A stretch of DNA of 64,000 nucleotides, from IMG/VR virus record IMGVR_UViG_3300026488_000022, positions 1-64,000 of that record, one strand, 5' to 3'. The notes beneath the pieces were generated by a model. That model saw only the letters and a program-made list of their open reading frames with translations. It did no database searches and was not told where the DNA came from. Shown piece after piece: positions 2,146 through 57,241 of this stretch (position 1 is its first letter; the number at the start of each line of letters is the position of its first letter). A program made the translations under genes and the position numbers. Source of the DNA: a virus.

Positions 2146-2210
2146 AAAAAACCTTTTTTACTTATTATACCAAAAAAACTAAAAAAACAAAAGGAGGAAA
2201 GGAGAGAAAA

Positions 2211-35780: not shown

Positions 35781-35906
35781 ATGAAAAGAGATTTTAATAT
35801 TTTAAAAATATATCAAAGAGAAATAAATTGCAGACCAAAAGTTGTTAAAAACAAAAAGAAATATACAAGGAAAGTAAAGCATAAAAAAGCTTTACTAAAC
35901 TTTTAA
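35781..35906 (+). CDS. 41-aa basic peptide, ArfA-like (alternative ribosome rescue factor resemblance)
   Basis: Not in the track. MKRDFNILKIYQREINCRPKVVKNKKKYTRKVKHKKALLNF, with promoter and AAGGAG RBS; RxxVxKNKK..YxRKxKH pattern. Confidence 0.55.
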   Translation: MKRDFNILKIYQREINCRPKVVKNKKKYTRKVKHKKALLNF

Positions 35907-37229
35907 ATCAGGCTCACCACCAAGTGGGTCTGTGCTTCCTACATTTGTAGGTTTGTTTTGCCCTTCTGAACTATTTTGACTCATTTTTACTAAATCTTGA
36001 AAGAATTGTGCTTCACTTCCTGTTAAAAATGCAGGAACAACATTTTTGTCAGCTCCTTCAAAATCCATTTCTGGTAAATCAACTAAATCTCTTGCCTCAT
36101 TTAATGTAGCAAGTCCTGTTGCAAACAATGTTCTTGCACTATCAGCTTTTACATCAAGTGCAGTATCAAGTTCTGTTATTCTTCCAAAATCAAACTCAAA
36201 ATAATATTTTCCATAACCAAATTGTTTCCCTAAAAAGAGATTAATTTGGTCTTGTATTCTATAAAGATAAGGTCTGACTGCAGTATTAAAAACAACTTTC
36301 ATTAATTCTTGAGGTTTTCCTGCACTTTTATCTTCTCCTCCTAAAACAAGAGAATTTAATTTAAAAACTCTTAAAACTCTTTTTTCACTTATATCAAGGC
36401 TATCTAATAACATTGCGTCTCTTGGACTTGCTTGTACTGTTTTATAATCCATTTTAGCGGGTAAAACAGCAATTCCTCTTCTCTCACTTCCTCCTTTACC
36501 ATATAAAGCATTGAATTGGTCTCTTAATTCATCTATTTGTTGAGGTGTTAGAGCATATTCTGCTTTTAAAATACCAGCTAAAATTACACTACCCTCATAA
36601 AACTCTTTTAAACTATCAATAGCGTCCTTTTCTAAAGTTAAAGTGTCAAGTAAAGGTGCTACACTCGGCAAACCGTAATATGCATTATTTAATGTTGGGT
36701 TAATAATCCAAATAAGTTCGTTTTCTTTATAAGCAATTTGGTCATTATAAATATACCCTTTAATAAATTTAGAGGCGTCAGGTACAACTTGCACTAAATG
36801 TGGTTGGGTTAAAAACCAAGTTTCATAACTTCCTTTAACGTTTTCAAAAGTTAAAGGCGCTACCCCTGAAAGTAATAAACCTTGAATTGCAAGTTCAATT
36901 ATAACTCCCCAGGACCAAAAAGGATTTGGTCTATATTCCCATTCTGCTAATTTTTTATCTTTAACAGGCAGTTTTTTACCCGATTTATCTAACCTATAAA
37001 GTCTTGGGATTGCTTGTCCTCCAGCTTTTGCGATATAATCAACTGCACTAAAAACAAGCTCACTTGTATGAAAAGTGTTTTCCATTCCACTTGTAGCAAG
37101 TTGATTGTTACCTAATTTATAATCCTCAGCTATTTTTTTATTTGCTTTTGTTGCCTTTGTGTCCATATAAACTATTGTTTGTTTTTCTGTTTTTATATCC
37201 TTAGGTTTTAAAAAATCAAATAATCCCAT
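35895..37229 (-). CDS. Portal protein (HK97 family)
   Basis: VFSAVDYIA, RPNPF, YYGLPSVAPL, AGILK, TLNEARDL. Confidence 0.92.
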   Translation of the reverse strand: MGLFDFLKPKDIKTEKQTIVYMDTKATKANKKIAEDYKLGNNQLATSGMENTFHTSELVFSAVDYIAKAGGQAIPRLYRLDKSGKKLPVKDKKLAEWEYRPNPFWSWGVIIELAIQGLLLSGVAPLTFENVKGSYETWFLTQPHLVQVVPDASKFIKGYIYNDQIAYKENELIWIINPTLNNAYYGLPSVAPLLDTLTLEKDAIDSLKEFYEGSVILAGILKAEYALTPQQIDELRDQFNALYGKGGSERRGIAVLPAKMDYKTVQASPRDAMLLDSLDISEKRVLRVFKLNSLVLGGEDKSAGKPQELMKVVFNTAVRPYLYRIQDQINLFLGKQFGYGKYYFEFDFGRITELDTALDVKADSARTLFATGLATLNEARDLVDLPEMDFEGADKNVVPAFLTGSEAQFFQDLVKMSQNSSEGQNKPTNVGSTDPLGGEPDLKV

Positions 37230-37260
37230 TTATATTCCTTTTTGTTATTTTACTATTAAA

Positions 37261-37268
37261 TATATCAG
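37261..37268 (-). promoter_or_regulatory. Putative late promoter CTGATATA
   Basis: 32 bp upstream of the portal start. Confidence 0.65.
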
Positions 37269-37289
37269 TATAAAAAACAAAAGGAGAAA

Positions 37290-37424
37290 AAATGAAAAAG
37301 AAGAAAGAGCGGAAGCTCAATTGAAGCTTGTTTTACAAACCTCAATTGAACGCCCATTTCAGGCGTTCTAAATCAAACACCCATTTCAGGTGTTTTAAAT
37401 TGAACACCCACCCCAGGTGTTCTA
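37290..37424 (-). ncRNA. Candidate late small RNA of three tandem 27-nt hairpins plus a terminal hairpin
   Basis: Units 37344-37370, 37371-37397, 37398-37424 with compensatory stem changes; upstream CCGATATA; U-rich end. Confidence 0.5.
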
Positions 37425-37428
37425 CTAT

Positions 37429-37436
37429 TATATCGG
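37429..37436 (-). promoter_or_regulatory. Putative late promoter CCGATATA not followed by a CDS
   Basis: Sits 5 bp from the hairpin array. Confidence 0.55.
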
Positions 37437-37439
37437 AAA

Positions 37440-38492
37440 TTAAACTAATCTTAATGACACATAATTTCCAACATAAGTTTTTTCACTTAAAGTAGCATCT
37501 GTGGTAAATAAAGGAAAATGTTTAATGCTTAAAGTTTCTTTAAAAAATTCACTAAAATAAACTTTTCCGTCTATTTCCTGTCTTAACCTAAATCTTAATT
37601 GGTTTGTTCTCCCCCATTGTCTTGTAGCTCCAATAAAATCAAAAAGAACTTCATTTTTAGTAAAAGCATATAAAGGATAATAACTGCCCCTTCTGTTTTG
37701 AGAAACACTACCTCTGTTTCCTGAATTATTAAAGTTTGTGTTTTTATCAAATCCCCATACTTCTAATTTTATTCCATCAGGAAAATCTTTCCCTAATTCA
37801 AAACCACCCGCAAACACAACATTAAAAAACCTTTTTTGTATTGTATATGTGTCACCTGAATTAAAACTTTGATAAGTAACATCCCAACTTGTTAAATCAC
37901 TATCATTCATAATTGCACTTTTTAAAAAACCATTCCCGTTAAATGCGTCTATATAAGATGTTTGAGGGATAAGGGCATTTCTTGCTTTAACATAGGAATT
38001 TCCTTCCTTTCTTGCCAATCTTAAATTGTATTGTCCGCCATATTTTAAAGGCTCTTCATAGACTATTTTAACAACCCCAGAAGGCGCACCATCTGGAAAT
38101 TCTAAATGTTCTACATAACCGGCAGGATTAATCACTTGTCCGTGAAAATCCCAATCTTCAAACAATTCGTCATTAATATAAACTTTTACTAAATCTTTTT
38201 TTGGAAAAATAACTTGTCTTAAAAACAAACGATTTTTGCTGGATAAATTATCCGTATGATTATAAAATACCATCACATTCTTTTTGCTGTTTTCAGCTCC
38301 AAAAGGTATTAAATGTTCATTATTTATTGCGTCATTTACGCTTTCATAAGAAATTGTATTATCTCGTACAACATAATATTTTAATTCAGTTCCATTATCC
38401 ACTATAACAAGCTGGTTTAATTGATAATTTTTTAAACTTATATAATCATTGCTTTTTAAAACCGGTAATTTATAATGAGTATAAGTTGCCAT
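37440..38492 (-). CDS. Modular fibre/decoration-like virion protein
   Basis: N-terminus resembles 47185-48747; remainder resembles the C-terminal part of 38502-40367. Confidence 0.5.
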   Translation of the reverse strand: MATYTHYKLPVLKSNDYISLKNYQLNQLVIVDNGTELKYYVVRDNTISYESVNDAINNEHLIPFGAENSKKNVMVFYNHTDNLSSKNRLFLRQVIFPKKDLVKVYINDELFEDWDFHGQVINPAGYVEHLEFPDGAPSGVVKIVYEEPLKYGGQYNLRLARKEGNSYVKARNALIPQTSYIDAFNGNGFLKSAIMNDSDLTSWDVTYQSFNSGDTYTIQKRFFNVVFAGGFELGKDFPDGIKLEVWGFDKNTNFNNSGNRGSVSQNRRGSYYPLYAFTKNEVLFDFIGATRQWGRTNQLRFRLRQEIDGKVYFSEFFKETLSIKHFPLFTTDATLSEKTYVGNYVSLRLV

Positions 38493-38501
38493 TTTTTCTC
38501 C

Positions 38502-40367
38502 TTATATTATTTTCATTAATTTGTAATGTCCTACAAAAGTATTGACATTATCTTCAGGGTCTGTTGTAAAAACAGGAAAATTACGCACACTAACTACACT
38601 TGATAACCATTGACTAAACAAAACATCTCCAGAATTATCAACTTTAATCATTCTAAAATGATATACACCGTTTTTGTCTAAATTATAAATTTTATTTCTT
38701 GTAAATTTTCCTACTGGAACTAACCTACCTTGTGCCTCCTTGTTATCAGGAATATGTTTTTTAGCTGGTGATTTACTGTCTCTTGCCCAAACTTCTATAA
38801 CAAAACCATCTGGCAAATCAGTTTCTTTTGGAAACTCAGCTATATAGGCTAAATTTGGACTTGCTTTTTCTACATCAATTGTATAATCACGATTATTGAC
38901 GCCTTTATAATGACAGATGTAACGCTCAAAACCATAACTTGTATTAACTAAATCTACACTATCTAAATAATATCTAATACCTCCTTGGTCAGTAATAAAT
39001 TTAGTTATCATTTTTGGTCTTGAAATTATAAAATTTGCACCTTCTTTTCTATATAAAACAAGCTTATAATCTCCAAGACCGATTGGCTCAACATATTCAA
39101 TTTTTATTTTATCATCATCGTTTAAAGCAGAATTAAACTTTAAATGAGTTGTATAATCTGGATTTAAACTTTCAACTTGGTCGCCAAAATCCCAATCTTC
39201 AAACACCTCATCATTAACATAAACTTTAATTAAATTTCTACTTTTATAAATATATCTTTTTAAAAACAACAAATTTTTACCTGAAATATCTTCCCCTTTT
39301 CTGTAAATAAAAACTTTATTAGTCGGGTCAGCACTTAGATTAAAACTAAAAAGCTCTCCTGTTGAGGTATCCACTCCAATTACATAAGGGTTATTAGGTT
39401 TTGCTTTAGGATTTTTACCATATGCATAAAAAATAGGATTATCTTCTTTTGTAAATTGATAATTGGTTTTTTTAACAATAAAATAAGGACTTAAACTTCC
39501 AAAATCATCACCTAAAACCACATCATATTGAGCATTATCACCATAAGCACCTACTACAAGTTGTGTGTCAGTTAAATTTCCGCCTTTCCCAGCAAGATAA
39601 GTTTGGTAAAAATTATCACCATACATTGTTAAGAATACTTGTTTGGCATACGGGTCAGCTGATGTAGAGGCAGTAAAACTTGCTCCTGTATAATTATCAT
39701 CATTATTTGTATTTGTAGCATTAAATTCTACAATACCATAAGCATTTCTTTCAATATAAACTCTTTGGACGTTTTCGGTGTTTTCATTAGGTACTAATTG
39801 TTCCCCTATGCCTGTATCTGCGTCTTCTTTTTTCCAATAAGTTTTAGTATCAATAATATCACAAATATCTTTAGGTGTGTATCTCCTCACTTCATTAACT
39901 TCACAAGGATTTTGTTTTTCGGCGTCTGATATTTTATGTATCTGAACTCCAAGATAAAACCAATTTGGATTACCTTCATCATCTGTTCTTGCCTCATATA
40001 AACCAGCTTTTTTCCTATTGAAAAAAACCCAAGTTCCTGTTGCTTTTTGTACTAACCATTGCTCACCGAGATGGTCTGCTGGGTCTGGCAAATCAGCATA
40101 AGTTTCAACTTCGCCTTCCCAACCATCAAAATTTGCATTACCTCCTAAGCTAACTTCAACCCAACTAAGCAAATCGTCTTGTAATTGCCAAAATTTTTGG
40201 TCTTCTTGATTATAAACAACCATTCCTACTTTTTTTCTTAAGTCAGGAATGTTATCACGTTCTTCAGTTGTTGCTACAACACGAAAACCACCTTCTAAAT
40301 GAATATCCTCAATTAACGGATATTCACCACCGCCTGTATCAAATTTACCTGTTATTTTAATTGCCAT
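38502..40367 (-). CDS. Fibre-like virion protein
   Basis: GGFRVVATTEERDNIP...GMVVY and GEVETYADLP motifs typical of phage fibres. Confidence 0.6.
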   Translation of the reverse strand: MAIKITGKFDTGGGEYPLIEDIHLEGGFRVVATTEERDNIPDLRKKVGMVVYNQEDQKFWQLQDDLLSWVEVSLGGNANFDGWEGEVETYADLPDPADHLGEQWLVQKATGTWVFFNRKKAGLYEARTDDEGNPNWFYLGVQIHKISDAEKQNPCEVNEVRRYTPKDICDIIDTKTYWKKEDADTGIGEQLVPNENTENVQRVYIERNAYGIVEFNATNTNNDDNYTGASFTASTSADPYAKQVFLTMYGDNFYQTYLAGKGGNLTDTQLVVGAYGDNAQYDVVLGDDFGSLSPYFIVKKTNYQFTKEDNPIFYAYGKNPKAKPNNPYVIGVDTSTGELFSFNLSADPTNKVFIYRKGEDISGKNLLFLKRYIYKSRNLIKVYVNDEVFEDWDFGDQVESLNPDYTTHLKFNSALNDDDKIKIEYVEPIGLGDYKLVLYRKEGANFIISRPKMITKFITDQGGIRYYLDSVDLVNTSYGFERYICHYKGVNNRDYTIDVEKASPNLAYIAEFPKETDLPDGFVIEVWARDSKSPAKKHIPDNKEAQGRLVPVGKFTRNKIYNLDKNGVYHFRMIKVDNSGDVLFSQWLSSVVSVRNFPVFTTDPEDNVNTFVGHYKLMKII

Positions 40368-40378
40368 TTAAAAACTCC

Positions 40379-41191
40379 TTAACTGATAGTACTATCTAAT
40401 GAACTACCTTGTTGATAAGCAGTTCGCAATACTTTATATTCAATTGTAATACCATAATCATTTGTTATATTTATATTATCCAAATAAGTAAAATCAACAG
40501 CAAAACCAGACTCATTGTCACGCCAATCATTGATATTTCCCCATTCAGCTGGATAAATAACATAACAATATTTATTTGTGCTTCCTATTGAAAAACTATA
40601 ATGTCCAGCATACCCACTTTTCAAGGCACTGTTTTCAAGATTTTTAACCTCATCTTCAGTTAATGTATCATTCACTGAAGTTCCCCAATAAACTCTTGCC
40701 CTCCAATAAACACGAAAATCACGGCTAAAGATTTGCCCTTTTGTATTAATTCCACTAATTCTCCAAGTATAAGAACTGTTAATTCCGCTTGAAGTTTTAT
40801 CGTCCCCAATATCTAAATCTTCCTGTCCATCGTTTGCTAAATTATCACCTAAAATCGCATTAGCATTTACATCTTTAATTCTAATTGAGTTTTCTTGAAT
40901 GTTTTCTGAATGACTTGTAGTCCATTTAAAAGTTCTAACTCCTCCGTTTATAACTTGGCCCACTTCTAACTGCGTAACTTGTCCATCAATATAAAAACTT
41001 GTAAAAGCAGGGTATTGATAAGGAAATAAAATCATTTTTAAAACTTCACAAGGTTGTAGCCCGTTTATATCCGTTCCTGCTTCTAAACCTCCGTGTGTTT
41101 CAGGCACTGTATCCTCAGTTTGCATAACACAACCAGCTTGGTCTCCTACCCCTATATCTGGATAAATTATAGAAAATTTATTATTTGCCAT
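40379..41191 (-). CDS. Virion structural protein with Ig-like domain
   Basis: GG...GT...ILFPYQYPAF, LEVGQ, YVIYPAEWG; own late promoter. Confidence 0.55.
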   Translation of the reverse strand: MANNKFSIIYPDIGVGDQAGCVMQTEDTVPETHGGLEAGTDINGLQPCEVLKMILFPYQYPAFTSFYIDGQVTQLEVGQVINGGVRTFKWTTSHSENIQENSIRIKDVNANAILGDNLANDGQEDLDIGDDKTSSGINSSYTWRISGINTKGQIFSRDFRVYWRARVYWGTSVNDTLTEDEVKNLENSALKSGYAGHYSFSIGSTNKYCYVIYPAEWGNINDWRDNESGFAVDFTYLDNINITNDYGITIEYKVLRTAYQQGSSLDSTIS

Positions 41192-41332: not shown

Positions 41333-41902
41333 ATGGCAACAATTAAACAACTTGGAGAAATTAAAGTAGTAGAAATTAGAGGGGTTGGAGAAAACATCTC
41401 CGACGAAACTAAAAGAATTTTTTTAAGTAAAAGTGGGTTAAAAATAATTGAAGAATATGAAAGAACAAAAGAAAGCAATCCTGAGGAAGCACCAAGCTGG
41501 GAAGATGTTATTAACAAGCTTGAACTTTATTTTAACAAAAACAACAAACCTATTTTAACTGCTAAAAAAGATAAAACAAAAATAACAATTAACAAATATA
41601 TTGAAAGCAGTTATAGGGGAACTTCTTATATTGAAGAAACAAGTGAAGGAGTTACAATAGTTAGCGCAACAGGTGCTGGAAGACTTGGTGAGCATACTGA
41701 ATTTATTGCTACTATACCAGAAGGATGTTATGTTATTGTTTATAGTGGTGGGAGATATCACAAAGGTTGGACTTGTTTTAAAAATGTAGAAGGAGAACTT
41801 AAAACTTATGAATTTTACAATAGAGGCAAATATGTAGAAAAACCTGATTATGAAGACGCTAAAATAGCTTTTGGATTAATGGATTGTGCTTGTGAAGATT
41901 AA
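41333..41902 (+). CDS. Hypothetical cargo protein, antisense to the late operon
   Basis: Promoter, AAGGAG RBS and 189-aa ORF converging on terL. Confidence 0.75.
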   Translation: MATIKQLGEIKVVEIRGVGENISDETKRIFLSKSGLKIIEEYERTKESNPEEAPSWEDVINKLELYFNKNNKPILTAKKDKTKITINKYIESSYRGTSYIEETSEGVTIVSATGAGRLGEHTEFIATIPEGCYVIVYSGGRYHKGWTCFKNVEGELKTYEFYNRGKYVEKPDYEDAKIAFGLMDCACED

Positions 41903-41905
41903 TTT

Positions 41906-43264
41906 TTACACGACCTGAATTTGTAAATTTTGCAATTTCCACCACCCACTTGTTAAATACCTTAAAGCACCTACGGACAAATCAAAATGTCCGTCCTTGT
42001 TTCTTTCTATTGTTTTTCCATTGCTATTTTCTTTCCAATGAGCTAATTTTAATTCTTCAATCAATTGCATACAATTTTCTGATATGAATAATTTTCCTTT
42101 TTGAAATGCCGTGTTAATGTCCCTAATGCTTTCTACTAATTGAATTGGTGCGGGTTGTGTATAGTAACTATAACTATACGCCATATCTGCCATTGTCAAA
42201 CTTGCACTTGGGTCACAAAATCTTACAATCTGCATATCAGGATTTTCACAATATCTTTGTTCTATTTCTCTAAAATGTTTAATGTGCCATTCAATAGGCA
42301 TTTGCCCCGCCATATATTCATCTAAAACATAAATATTACCAGTCATTGGCTCTATCCAAGCCATAACAAAACTTGTATTGTCCCTAAAACCAATATCAAT
42401 TCCTACTGCAAACGTATCTTTTGTTGTCATTTTATTTTTTAAATCACTAACTCTAAATACATTTTTTTCTAAATCAAAAGCATAAAATACCTGCAAATCC
42501 TCACTAAACCCACTTTGAAACTCACATAAATATTCTTGTTCAAAACTTCTTTTATCAAGTTTTGCTTTTATTGACTCAATCATTTCTTTTGTTATCATAG
42601 GATTATCATAAACTGTAACTTTTTTACAAAAATAATCGTTTCTTTGCCCACATCTTTTCCATAACTTATAAAAATCATTATCAAAAGTTCTTGGTGTTCC
42701 TATAAAATAAGTTTTAGAAAACATAAAGCCGTTTTCATCAGTACCATAATCGTTTTGTGCTGGTGAAATGTAGGTTTCCCAAATTTCAAGAACATTATTT
42801 ATACTCGCAGTTTCATCAAAAATAACTAAACTGAATTTATCTCCAAGTGCATTTTCATAATTTTTTTCTGTAACTACACGAAATTTAGCACCATTTTCTA
42901 ATGTAAATGTTAAACCTTTCATATCCTTTGATTTAAAAGGTAATTGTAGTTTATTTACATCTTTTTCAACATTACTAAAAATAGCTTGTGCATTTGCAAA
43001 TGTAGGTGTTACTAATAATATACTTGCATTAGGAATTAAAAGTTCTGACAATGCAATTTTTGACATAATTGTAGATTTACCTGCCCTTCTTGACATTAAA
43101 AAAACACCAACATTAAAATCAGCTTTTTGTATCCTATCAATTATCTCTTGTTGATATTTTGTAGGTGTAAATTCTAACAATTTTAATACTTTATTATAAT
43201 CAATTTTTCTTTTTACTTTTTTATAAAGTTCTATTTCTTGATTTACAGGTTTAAATTCTGACAT
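41906..43264 (-). CDS. terL: Terminase large subunit
   Basis: Walker A SRRAGKS, Walker B LVIFDE, GTP coupling motif, FEQEYLCEF, nuclease GIDIG. Confidence 0.95.
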   Translation of the reverse strand: MSEFKPVNQEIELYKKVKRKIDYNKVLKLLEFTPTKYQQEIIDRIQKADFNVGVFLMSRRAGKSTIMSKIALSELLIPNASILLVTPTFANAQAIFSNVEKDVNKLQLPFKSKDMKGLTFTLENGAKFRVVTEKNYENALGDKFSLVIFDETASINNVLEIWETYISPAQNDYGTDENGFMFSKTYFIGTPRTFDNDFYKLWKRCGQRNDYFCKKVTVYDNPMITKEMIESIKAKLDKRSFEQEYLCEFQSGFSEDLQVFYAFDLEKNVFRVSDLKNKMTTKDTFAVGIDIGFRDNTSFVMAWIEPMTGNIYVLDEYMAGQMPIEWHIKHFREIEQRYCENPDMQIVRFCDPSASLTMADMAYSYSYYTQPAPIQLVESIRDINTAFQKGKLFISENCMQLIEELKLAHWKENSNGKTIERNKDGHFDLSVGALRYLTSGWWKLQNLQIQVV

Positions 43265-43557: not shown

Positions 43558-44022
43558 ATGGAATATAGCGTAATAATAAATCTAACTCAACATAAAGCAA
43601 CTGAAGAACAAAAACAGGCAGGTGTGATAGACCTGCCAGAAAAATATCAAACAAAATTAAGAACACTTTTAACGTTTAATGAATTACCAAATTGTAAAGA
43701 AATCACTAATAGAGCTGAAAAAATAGGAGATTTAGTTTTAGAATTTTTATCAGATAATTTAAGTCCTGTTAAAAACGAAGTTGAACAAATTTTAAAATTA
43801 GATGAAATTAAACAAATTGAAGAATTTGAAAAACTAAATTTAGGTTTTATGATAGGTGGAGCGCCTTATCTTATGGGCGCTTTAGAAGAAGAACTAAGTT
43901 ATTTTGGGACACCTTTATATGCCTTTACAAAAAGAATTGTAGAAGAAATAAAAAAATCAGACGGAACAGTAGAAAAGAAAGCAATATTCAAACACGAAGG
44001 CTTTGTTCCTGCTTGTATTTAA
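43558..44022 (+). CDS. Csx20/Csx15-like CARF-related protein; candidate cyclic-oligoadenylate ring nuclease
   Basis: NLTQH..TEEQ, MIGGAPYLM, PLYAFTKR..EE....DG...K..IFKH..F match my recollection of the Csx20 pattern. Confidence 0.55.
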   Translation: MEYSVIINLTQHKATEEQKQAGVIDLPEKYQTKLRTLLTFNELPNCKEITNRAEKIGDLVLEFLSDNLSPVKNEVEQILKLDEIKQIEEFEKLNLGFMIGGAPYLMGALEEELSYFGTPLYAFTKRIVEEIKKSDGTVEKKAIFKHEGFVPACI

Positions 44023-48776: not shown

Positions 48777-48784
48777 TATATCAG
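48777..48784 (-). promoter_or_regulatory. Putative late promoter CTGATATA
   Basis: 30 bp upstream of start 48747. Confidence 0.65.
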
Positions 48785-56537: not shown

Positions 56538-56945
56538 TTAATTAATTCTGTAAATAAAAAATATTTTATCATCTACTATAAATTCTCTTTCTTCGCTGTC
56601 ATAAGGAGCAAGGATACTCCCTGCTCCGTCTGACAGCAAAACATCCTCAATCCAGGCCTCTACATCTATGTAATATTGTAGAGGCTCTGGGACTTCTGGA
56701 GCATAACACTCTTCATAAATTTCAGATAGTTTGTCTTTCGCAAACTCTTTAACAGCATCATAATTATCAAAAATTAGAAATTGACGACAACTGCAATCAG
56801 TGAAGAGATAATTACTTTTTTCATAAAATCTACAATTTTTTATTTCTTTTGTAGGTATTTCAAAAACTTTTGCTAAATTTTTTAAATCTTCTCTACTTTT
56901 AATGTTAAAAAACTCTATAATTTCTTTAAAAGTTAATTCTTTCAT
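56538..56945 (-). CDS. Acidic early protein with ArdA-like C-terminal motif
   Basis: EVPEPLQYYIDVEAWIEDVLLSDG. Confidence 0.45.
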   Translation of the reverse strand: MKELTFKEIIEFFNIKSREDLKNLAKVFEIPTKEIKNCRFYEKSNYLFTDCSCRQFLIFDNYDAVKEFAKDKLSEIYEECYAPEVPEPLQYYIDVEAWIEDVLLSDGAGSILAPYDSEEREFIVDDKIFFIYRIN

Positions 56946-57241
56946 TTTATTCCTCCTCTTTTTGTTTTTAATTTTTCATCAATTTTTTCTATTTTTTCTT
57001 TAGTATTCTCTACATATTCGACAATTTTAGCTAAAATTTTTTCAAGCTCTTCAATCTCCTCAATTTTAACAAATAATTTTCCTGAATTCACGTCATAATA
57101 AACGTGAGGAAAATCATTATAATCAATTTTTGCAATAACCTCGTCAGCACCTGCTCTTCTTATAATGAATTCATCAGTAAATTCATTGTAAGTTACATTT
57201 AGAGATTTTAAAAATTTATTTAATTTTACTTCAAATTTCAT
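56942..57241 (-). CDS. Hypothetical early protein
   Basis: AAGGAG RBS identical in context to that of 57594. Confidence 0.65.
   Translation of the reverse strand: MKFEVKLNKFLKSLNVTYNEFTDEFIIRRAGADEVIAKIDYNDFPHVYYDVNSGKLFVKIEEIEELEKILAKIVEYVENTKEKIEKIDEKLKTKRGGIK

Follow-up and report, generated by a model that had tools for sequence, protein, structure and literature searches.

Between a late gene of the phage analyzed here and its portal gene, three near-identical hairpins follow directly on a copy of the late promoter that has no gene of its own. What this element is, whether it acts as RNA or as double-stranded DNA, and where a transcript starting at this promoter would end are the questions that the locus raises. 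A preliminary description had proposed a standalone late RNA of about 130 nucleotides (nt), serving as a protein sponge, an antitoxin or CRISPR-repeat mimic, or a packaging-related RNA, and had named palindromic DNA operator sites as the alternative.

Genomic setting of the hairpin array

The stretch of DNA analyzed (the window; 64,000 nt) is part of an 80,614-bp IMG/VR virus record (G000; 26.5% G+C). The top match for the phage in public sequencing runs is a hydrothermal-vent metagenome, and a nucleotide search with 2 kb of the locus found no match among 50,697 phage records. The nearest cultured-phage matches of the portal protein are from Vibrio phages at 23% identity, so the phage has no close cultured relative. 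The array region is flanked by a 350-amino-acid (aa) late gene and the portal gene. All surrounding genes have the minus strand as their sense strand and are arranged as follows.

41906-43264, large terminase gene, on the other side of a three-gene insertion from the portal gene
40379-41191, 38502-40367, and 37440-38492, minus strand, the three-gene insertion
37440-38492, minus strand, 350-aa late gene with no assigned function; upstream neighbor of the array
35895-37229, minus strand, portal gene (PF04860, E 2.8e-38); downstream neighbor of the array

The insertion and the array stand between the large terminase gene and the portal gene in this clade only. In several distant relatives the large terminase gene is directly followed by the portal gene, and the stretch between the two has a CGATATA box. 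The array thereby occupies the junction of a clade-specific insertion and the portal gene within the packaging/head module. The inserted late genes (window 37440-41191, minus strand) encode proteins of 270, 621, and 350 aa, none with a Pfam family. The gene for the 350-aa protein is present in the same three phages as the array and in no others, and it evolves fast, its product being 57 to 59% identical among the three phages, compared with 87 to 88% for the portals. This protein has no family in Pfam, PHROG, or PADLOC, and weak Atlas leads point to tail-fibre-like clusters (score, 0.83 or lower).

Several other genes of the phage were annotated in passing. A 154-aa protein (window 43558-44022, plus strand), encoded behind an early consensus promoter between the terminase genes, matches the PADLOC Csx20 models (E 1.7e-8) and, judging from this similarity, is possibly a countermeasure against type III CRISPR signaling. 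The 189-aa cargo of an early cassette (window 41333-41902, plus strand) has a weak PADLOC match to LmuB (E 3.5e-4, 75 residues) that is probably not meaningful. Pfam matches in the early/replication region of G000 (window 49-64 kb plus L157) include a family A DNA polymerase, matched in two open reading frames (ORFs), and an intein splicing domain; the polymerase is possibly split or intein-containing. Also matched in this region are ThyX, dCMP deaminase, a PAPS-reductase domain, N6/N4 methylase, ATP-dependent DNA ligase, DnaB, Toprim, HNH, and an SNF2-type helicase. The Rep gene and the divergent early/late region are located at ~48.8 to 49.0 kb, and the idea that the array is a replication origin was dropped.

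An orphan copy of the late promoter

The late promoter of this phage is a single box, YGATATA(A/T), which precedes the start codon by 25 to 40 nt in at least 13 late genes of the minus strand. Sites of this single-box motif in the window, all on the minus strand, are at 48783, 45161, 43306, 41224, 37267, 35523, 30931, 28452, 27749, 25476, 23302, 17233, and 11807. The box resembles the -10 element of FliA/SigD-type sigma factors, and the phage encodes a Sigma70_r2 protein (G000 79016-79207; sigma-factor gene at about 78.6 to 79.3 kb). The late promoters fall into two classes, TTCCGATATAA and ACTGATATAT, the latter with a conserved 30-nt upstream tract. Two copies of the promoter flank the array.

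37427-37439, minus strand, P1, orphan late promoter motif TTTCCGATATAAT, immediately past the 350-aa gene's stop codon; weight matrix score, 16.0 bits
37259-37268, minus strand, P2, portal-proximal late promoter ACTGATATAT; weight matrix score, 23.6 bits

The weight matrix was built from the 13 gene-proximal late promoters, with P1 left out of the training set. Under this matrix P1 ranks 12th of about 128,000 positions, within the range of the true sites and above all nonpromoter positions. It is the only high-scoring late-promoter site without a gene within 40 nt, and it is unchanged in two relatives but for one base. On the minus strand the late motif CGATATAA ends 5 nt ahead of hairpin 1, and the orphan motif that had been noticed 5 bp upstream of the hairpins is a genuine promoter copy; the separate downstream promoter that had been attributed to the portal gene corresponds to P2. 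P2 belongs to the cassette-borne promoter class, and P1 to the class that precedes the portal gene in distant relatives. A TTGATATAT site at 35815 was considered as a second orphan promoter and rejected, as it scores only 10.4 bits and lies inside a small plus-strand ORF.

Structure of the array

The interval between P1 and P2 contains the following elements, in the order of the minus strand.

37402-37422, minus strand, hairpin 1, GAACACCU / GGGUGUUC, loop GGGGU; inverted repeat GAACACC/GGTGTTC
37375-37395, minus strand, hairpin 2, AAACACCU / GGGUGUUU, loop GAAAU; inverted repeat AAACACC/GGTGTTT, with one base pair A-U here and U-A in the relatives
37348-37368, minus strand, hairpin 3, GAACGCCU / GGGCGUUC, loop GAAAU; inverted repeat GAACGCC/GGCGTTC
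37317-37349, minus strand, hairpin 4, a clamp hairpin of 13-14 bp with arms at 37317-37331 and 37335-37349 and a conserved base AAUUGA/UCAAUU
37307-37318, minus strand, mini-hairpin GAGC-UUCC-GCUC of 4 bp, followed by a U/C-rich run; present without the U-run in one relative (L009) and absent from the other (L010)
37269-37306, minus strand, pyrimidine-rich tail that includes an antisense copy of the leader, Shine-Dalgarno site, and ATG common to the early genes; the plus strand carries a promoter-less ribosome-binding site and a 10-codon ORF (37293-37325)

Three direct repeat units of 27 bp (37341-37367, 37368-37394, and 37395-37421) each hold one 21-nt hairpin. The units and 7-bp stems of the preliminary description are present, as are its minus-strand loops UGGGGUG, UGAAAUG, and UGAAAUG. 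The array hairpins are the sole exact matches to RAACRCC-N7-GGYGTTY both in the 64-kb window and in the whole 80.6-kb genome. When up to 2 mismatches were allowed, the dyad pattern had 4 matches in the 64-kb window against 0.68 expected, a count reached in 0 of 100 shuffles. The stem of the unit can be written AACRCCU/GGGYGUU, with a U-G closing wobble that is extendable to a tandem UG/GU wobble and leaves a free 3-nt apex.

Both strands of the 110-nt array fold far better than shuffled sequences, with -45.9 kcal/mol (z -8.2) for the minus strand and -31.8 kcal/mol (z -5.2) for the plus strand, and the sense strand folds better by 5 to 14 kcal/mol in all three genomes that carry the array. Two G-U pairs of hairpin 4 on the minus strand become A-C mismatches on the plus strand; the earlier observation that the longer hairpin pairs fully only on the minus strand through G-U pairing is therefore correct. 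The minimum-free-energy folds are plain hairpins, as predicted by tools that do not model pseudoknots, and inspection by eye found no conserved loop-linker pairing; a candidate loop-linker pseudoknot was discarded on the ground that its pairing is not conserved. We also rejected a coding repeat (27 nt equals 9 codons): start codon and ribosome-binding site are both missing, an open frame is not maintained, and the substitutions follow the pattern of compensation and not that of codons. A mimic of an anticodon loop was set aside as well, the loop having neither U33 nor a purine at position 37 on either strand.

Distribution of the array

The array was found in exactly three related IMG/VR phages, at one locus and with exactly three units in each genome. 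In the two relatives of G000, whose portals are those 87 to 88% identical, it lies at the same position and is accompanied by P1, hairpin 4, and P2. Strict and relaxed pattern scans of IMG/VR for tandem units returned nothing beyond these two relatives, and the array is absent from 16 more distant relatives (portal identity, 45 to 60%). A covariance model of the unit likewise had no match, either in 18 loci of more distant relatives or in the rest of the three genomes. Two of the distant relatives have other structures upstream of the portal gene: a near-perfect hairpin of roughly 60 bp in L024 (~2800-2920) and, in L030 (~2850-2950), a pair of ~45-nt direct repeats that contain GGACACCCC.

A metagenome scan with the portal alignment gave, among the matches listed, one known relative and one short contig at 58% identity. 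Vent metagenome contigs contained a variant that differs only in a loop (37413 C>T) and a haplotype of the L009 type, in which hairpin 2 again has the compensated U-A pair. Three units are retained in every genome and metagenome variant.

No Rfam 15 family came near its gathering score on the array. The best overlaps, mir-95 (20.4 bits versus 67.5, E 1.5) and ctRNA_pGA1 (16 bits versus 45, E 8.3), are noise, and the proposed packaging RNA found no backing here, with no Rfam family threshold reached. A pattern scan of GTDB (one genome per species) produced 95 matches, all but one of them single, with no same-strand tandem or spaced array; this number is close to the chance expectation, roughly estimated at ~70. 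One Omnitrophota metagenome-assembled genome has a dispersed REP-like hairpin, GGGAAC(A/G)CCTGGCGTGGGTGTTCCC, on at least 5 contigs, one copy having a G-U pair (pattern matches at L054 2518-2538 and 2650-2670 and L096 4159-4179, and also in L053, L062, and L076). Its resemblance to the phage hairpin pattern is coincidental. The array is a new putative RNA element outside the known families, of the general kind of structured noncoding RNAs in phage late regions.

Compensatory changes and the strand on which the structure forms

In the nine units of the three genomes, every one of the 72 pair cells holds a standard pair. Two stem positions vary (1/21 and 5/17), and whenever one arm changes there the other does too, giving G-C, A-U, or U-A at the base and A-U or G-C at position 5; the compensatory changes that had been claimed for two stem positions are thus real. 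An alignment of all four helices over the three genomes has 111 of 111 cells paired and six pairs with double changes, matched by only 2 of 500 shuffles; slid controls were 32 to 49% paired and held no double changes. Helix 4 (hairpin 4) accounts for 3 of the pairs with double changes and is 100% paired. Invariant columns across the three genomes make up 78% of P1 and the array, 43% of the 3' end of the upstream gene, and 35% of the downstream spacer. These alignments provide clear evidence that selection acts on the base pairing of the array, with the qualification that they comprise three fairly close genomes and few (about six) independent compensatory events. Template-switch repair of DNA palindromes could mimic some of the two-sided changes.

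All nine units have an invariant UG...UG around three variable apical bases, and the U-G closing pair forms on the minus strand only. Written as double-stranded DNA, these flanks (TG...TG) are asymmetric and not palindromic. The loops of the units (GGGGU, GAAAU, GAUGU, GAAGU, and GAGAU) vary freely at their apical bases while the stems are conserved.

Conserved stems around a variable center are a pattern also expected of palindromic DNA operators. The array might accordingly consist of three double-stranded sites (period 27 bp, with 6-bp AT-rich spacers) for a dimeric phage regulator of P1 or P2, or might form a unique cis site, for example iterons or a site recognized by the terminase. Its three 7+7 bp dyads overlap the P1 start region and lie upstream of P2, they occur at a single locus per genome with half-sites conserved around the variable center, and this locus belongs to the packaging/head module. 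However, symmetry is perfect in all 9 units and no change affects one side only; recognition of half-sites alone does not explain such conservation. A symmetric dimer would not require the asymmetric invariant loop flanks, nor would a protein operator need the upper stem of hairpin 4, which covaries completely; the 27-bp spacing would also set neighboring sites on different faces of the helix. We consider DNA sites quite unlikely. The operator alternative of the preliminary description retains its dyad sites near a promoter and is weakened by the two-sided compensation and the asymmetric UG...UG flanks.

A structure of the sense-strand RNA (or single strand) is favored over a double-stranded DNA site on these sequence grounds, because the G-U and U-G pairs exist on the minus strand only, the sense strand folds better, the upper stem of hairpin 4 covaries, and the loop flanks are asymmetric. 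The central proposal of a structured late RNA has in this respect held up: the promoter copy is genuine, the hairpins and their pairing are maintained in both relatives with compensatory changes, and the minus strand pairs better.

Ends of the predicted transcript

A consensus terminator scan called no intrinsic terminator in 37230-37440, whereas other late units of this phage end in ordinary single terminators by the same scan. Hairpin 4 was not called and has no adjacent conserved U-tract. The U-rich run described as following the longer hairpin does exist in this phage, but it starts 12 nt farther on, behind the GAGC/GCUC mini-stem, and is missing in both relatives. With terminator-like features missing or not conserved, a discrete standalone RNA of ~130 nt is not supported by the sequence. 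There is also no terminator between the stop codon of the 350-aa gene and the array, and read-through transcripts from the upstream gene would for that reason contain the array.

This arrangement bears on the possibility that the array is a structural cis element of late mRNAs without a specific partner, acting as a decay barrier, a processing site, or an insulator between the cassette and the portal unit. With such an element, the three-gene accessory operon would be capped at its 3' end and a P1-initiated portal mRNA at its 5' end. Any read-through RNA must carry the array, which stands at the border of the clade-specific insertion and the portal gene. The hairpins are very stable, and with so little divergence the harm done by single changes would by itself make stems look conserved. 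On the other hand, one hairpin would suffice for this purpose, yet three near-identical units are kept in every genome and variant, and the paralogous units stay alike in sequence, including the invariant UG...UG flanks. Moreover, the ordinary single terminators of the other late units are not of this form, and the conservation of P1 would be left unexplained. We regard a purely structural role of this kind as unlikely.

The antisense early-leader tail

The early promoters of the phage are perfect TTGACA-17-TATAAT sequences with a near-identical 5' leader and ribosome-binding site, and they drive small early genes, several of which are inserted antisense within the late operon. Early consensus promoters were identified from sequence at the following positions.

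23493, 35715, 41271, 43498, and 52692, plus strand, early consensus promoters
57662 and 60956, minus strand, early consensus promoters
64872 of G000, early consensus promoter

The early leader, of which gene 56942-57241 has one example, is homogenized within each genome and differs between the three phages. Downstream of the hairpins, plus-strand positions 37271-37298 are a promoter-less copy of this leader with its ribosome-binding site and ATG. In all three genomes the copy is followed on the plus strand by an ORF of 7 to 11 codons and then by the hairpins, and the encoded peptides are unrelated.

Read on the minus strand, the tail of a P1 RNA is an exact antisense of the leader common to each phage's own early genes, with longest matches of 17 nt in G000, 22 nt in G001, and 27 nt in G002. 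The tail variants are genome specific and track the early leaders of their own genome. Predicted tail-leader duplexes reach -29 to -38.6 kcal/mol, compared with mean best values of -21.5 to -24.2 kcal/mol for shuffled tails, and eight initiation regions pass the duplex threshold, compared with 0.3 to 0.4 in shuffles. The leader block is conserved between flanks that are not alignable and is predicted to be mostly unpaired in the short RNA (0.73 to 0.89 unpaired). The top predicted targets lie behind consensus early promoters, and the initiation regions of some late genes share 14-nt matches with the tail as well. The early leader recurs in antisense, again without a promoter, at window positions 2160-2205, as a CUCC-containing pyrimidine block on the late sense strand with no plus-strand start codon. 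This block is directly upstream of a TGGTATAAT promoter for the gene at 1144-2145.

These matches raise the possibility that the tail of the P1 RNA pairs with early mRNAs late in infection and shuts off their translation, with the hairpins serving as a stabilizing 5' cap. Exact complementarity that follows the leaders of each genome, duplexes and eight target regions well beyond those of shuffled tails, a block that is conserved and mostly unpaired, and best targets behind early promoters are all consistent with it. By descent, however, the block is what is left, without its promoter, of an early-cassette leader, so the complementarity needs no function, and any CUCC tract pairs with any Shine-Dalgarno site. 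The 14-nt matches to late initiation regions also speak against this role. Because the second copy adjoins another late promoter, a scar of the cassette or an element upstream of the promoter is an equally good account of the block. Nor would the need for three hairpins be accounted for, and we judge an antileader function to be rather unlikely. In phage T4, RegB and RegA inactivate early mRNAs at GGAG ribosome-binding sites (PMC3014915). An antileader RNA, if real, would be an RNA-based counterpart of these proteins, and its targets would include early genes that are in part counterdefense genes.

The same leader copy invites the opposite reading, in which the array is a relic on the plus strand: an early antisense cassette would have lost its sigma-70 promoter by deletion, leaving its cargo or terminator behind as the array, now nonfunctional or only weakly expressed. 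The order of cassette-type leader, ribosome-binding site, ATG, short ORF, and hairpins in all three genomes agrees with such an origin, as do the class of P2, which is cassette borne, and that of P1, which is the one upstream of the portal gene in distant relatives. Nevertheless, the plus strand has no promoter, the peptides of the mini-ORF are unrelated among the three genomes, and A-C mismatches interrupt hairpin 4 on that strand. A relic is not expected to retain six compensatory changes and 78% invariant columns, and we hold this account to be highly improbable.

Proposed function

The best explanation, which we put forward tentatively and at somewhat less than an even chance, is that the array is a clade-specific noncoding late transcription unit on the minus (sense) strand, driven by P1, whose product forms a stable multisite binding domain. 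Judging from its spacing, P1 would start transcription ~7 to 9 nt past the -10-like box, at the foot of hairpin 1. The RNA would then fold into the three iterated hairpins followed by a clamp hairpin of 13 to 16 bp. This folded domain is likely to resist nucleases, because it opens at the 5' end of the RNA and closes in a long stem. As a stable domain with three near-identical sites at a fixed number, it would most likely offer a platform for one sequence- and shape-specific RNA-binding factor. No recognizable RNA-hairpin-binding family appears among the 25 Pfam families listed in an overview of 61 phage proteins.

Downstream of the clamp, the RNA would continue as an unstructured pyrimidine-rich tail. 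It could be trimmed or terminated back to the hairpin domain of ~110 to 130 nt, or it could serve as a long leader of the portal mRNA. A Rho-like factor may stop the transcript in the C-containing, G-poor tail.

To our knowledge, few phage noncoding RNAs have been characterized, and those known come from cultured model phages. The array comes from a lineage of uncultured vent phages and is compact: it has a promoter copy of its own, its pairing is under selection, its units always number three, and it matches no known family. Should it act as a regulator, by binding protein or as an antisense RNA, it would represent a new way for phages to arrange the early-to-late switch or the expression of head genes, and also a small modular RNA part (a promoter with a stable 5' hairpin cap). 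If it is only a structural barrier on mRNA, it would be an ordinary element.

Comparison with known systems

Type III toxin-antitoxin loci (ToxI, CptI, and TenpI) consist of a promoter, tandem direct repeats, and a short palindrome (PMC3401426), and the order of P1, three 27-nt units, and hairpin 4 is the same. RNA anti-CRISPRs (Racr), or viral solitary repeat units, are defined by their likeness to a CRISPR repeat (PMC10651486); the phage array resembles them in having hairpin units of repeat size right behind a promoter (P1 lies 5 nt upstream, within 250 bp). The array might on this basis be a decoy of a host defense RNA, either an orphan type III antitoxin-like array or a Racr-like CRISPR-repeat mimic, that titrates a host endoribonuclease or Cas protein. 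The Csx20-like gene 6 kb away (PADLOC E 1.7e-8) makes a conflict with CRISPR plausible; it is an accessory gene, and no cas gene was found among the neighbors of the array.

The differences from both kinds of decoy are considerable. In place of an endoribonuclease toxin gene, the gene downstream is the portal (PF04860), and no ToxN/CptN/TenpN-type or other toxin gene was found nearby (PADLOC, seven neighboring proteins). The unit measures 27 nt, compared with 31 to 46 nt for aligned ToxI repeats, the predicted folds are plain hairpins rather than pseudoknots, and the palindrome lacks a U-tract; the earlier suggestion of a type III antitoxin is not supported by these observations. Unlike Racr, the array units are tandem, spacer-less, and driven by a late promoter, whereas the other counterdefense candidates of this phage sit behind early promoters. 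The CRISPR-repeat mimic was not substantiated either, as no Rfam CRISPR-DR family matched the array and no same-strand hairpin array occurred among the 95 GTDB matches, a comparison that covered Rfam and one genome per GTDB species. A decoy function of either type seems very unlikely.

Among antitermination RNAs, HK022 put and lambda nut boxB act in cis as promoter-proximal hairpins on the nascent transcript. The array hairpins are likewise promoter proximal, and their CCU-GAAAU-GGG apex superficially recalls the boxB pentaloops. However, the array has three identical units in place of two distinct stems, its loop bases are not conserved, and neither a boxA-like element nor an N-like protein was identified, the RNAs being compared by Rfam search only.

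In sponge RNAs of the CsrB/RsmZ type, the CsrA-binding hairpins carry GGA in their loops. No conserved GGA is present in the array loops, where the bases vary and the stems are conserved. The succession of iterated short hairpins and a terminal long hairpin is found in the array too and fits multivalent protein binding.

The late RNAs of lambdoid phages (lambda 6S and StxS) have a late promoter followed by a short structured noncoding stretch before the late genes and can become stable regulatory small RNAs (PMC7547250). Their 3' end is set by a strong intrinsic terminator (tR'), which Q antitermination overrides, whereas the array has no conserved terminator. The phage array also differs in its three iterated hairpins, in a next gene with its own promoter, and in showing no sequence or Rfam similarity to them. 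In layout they are nonetheless the nearest to P1 and the array, with a late promoter, a structured stretch, and late genes in the same succession in both.
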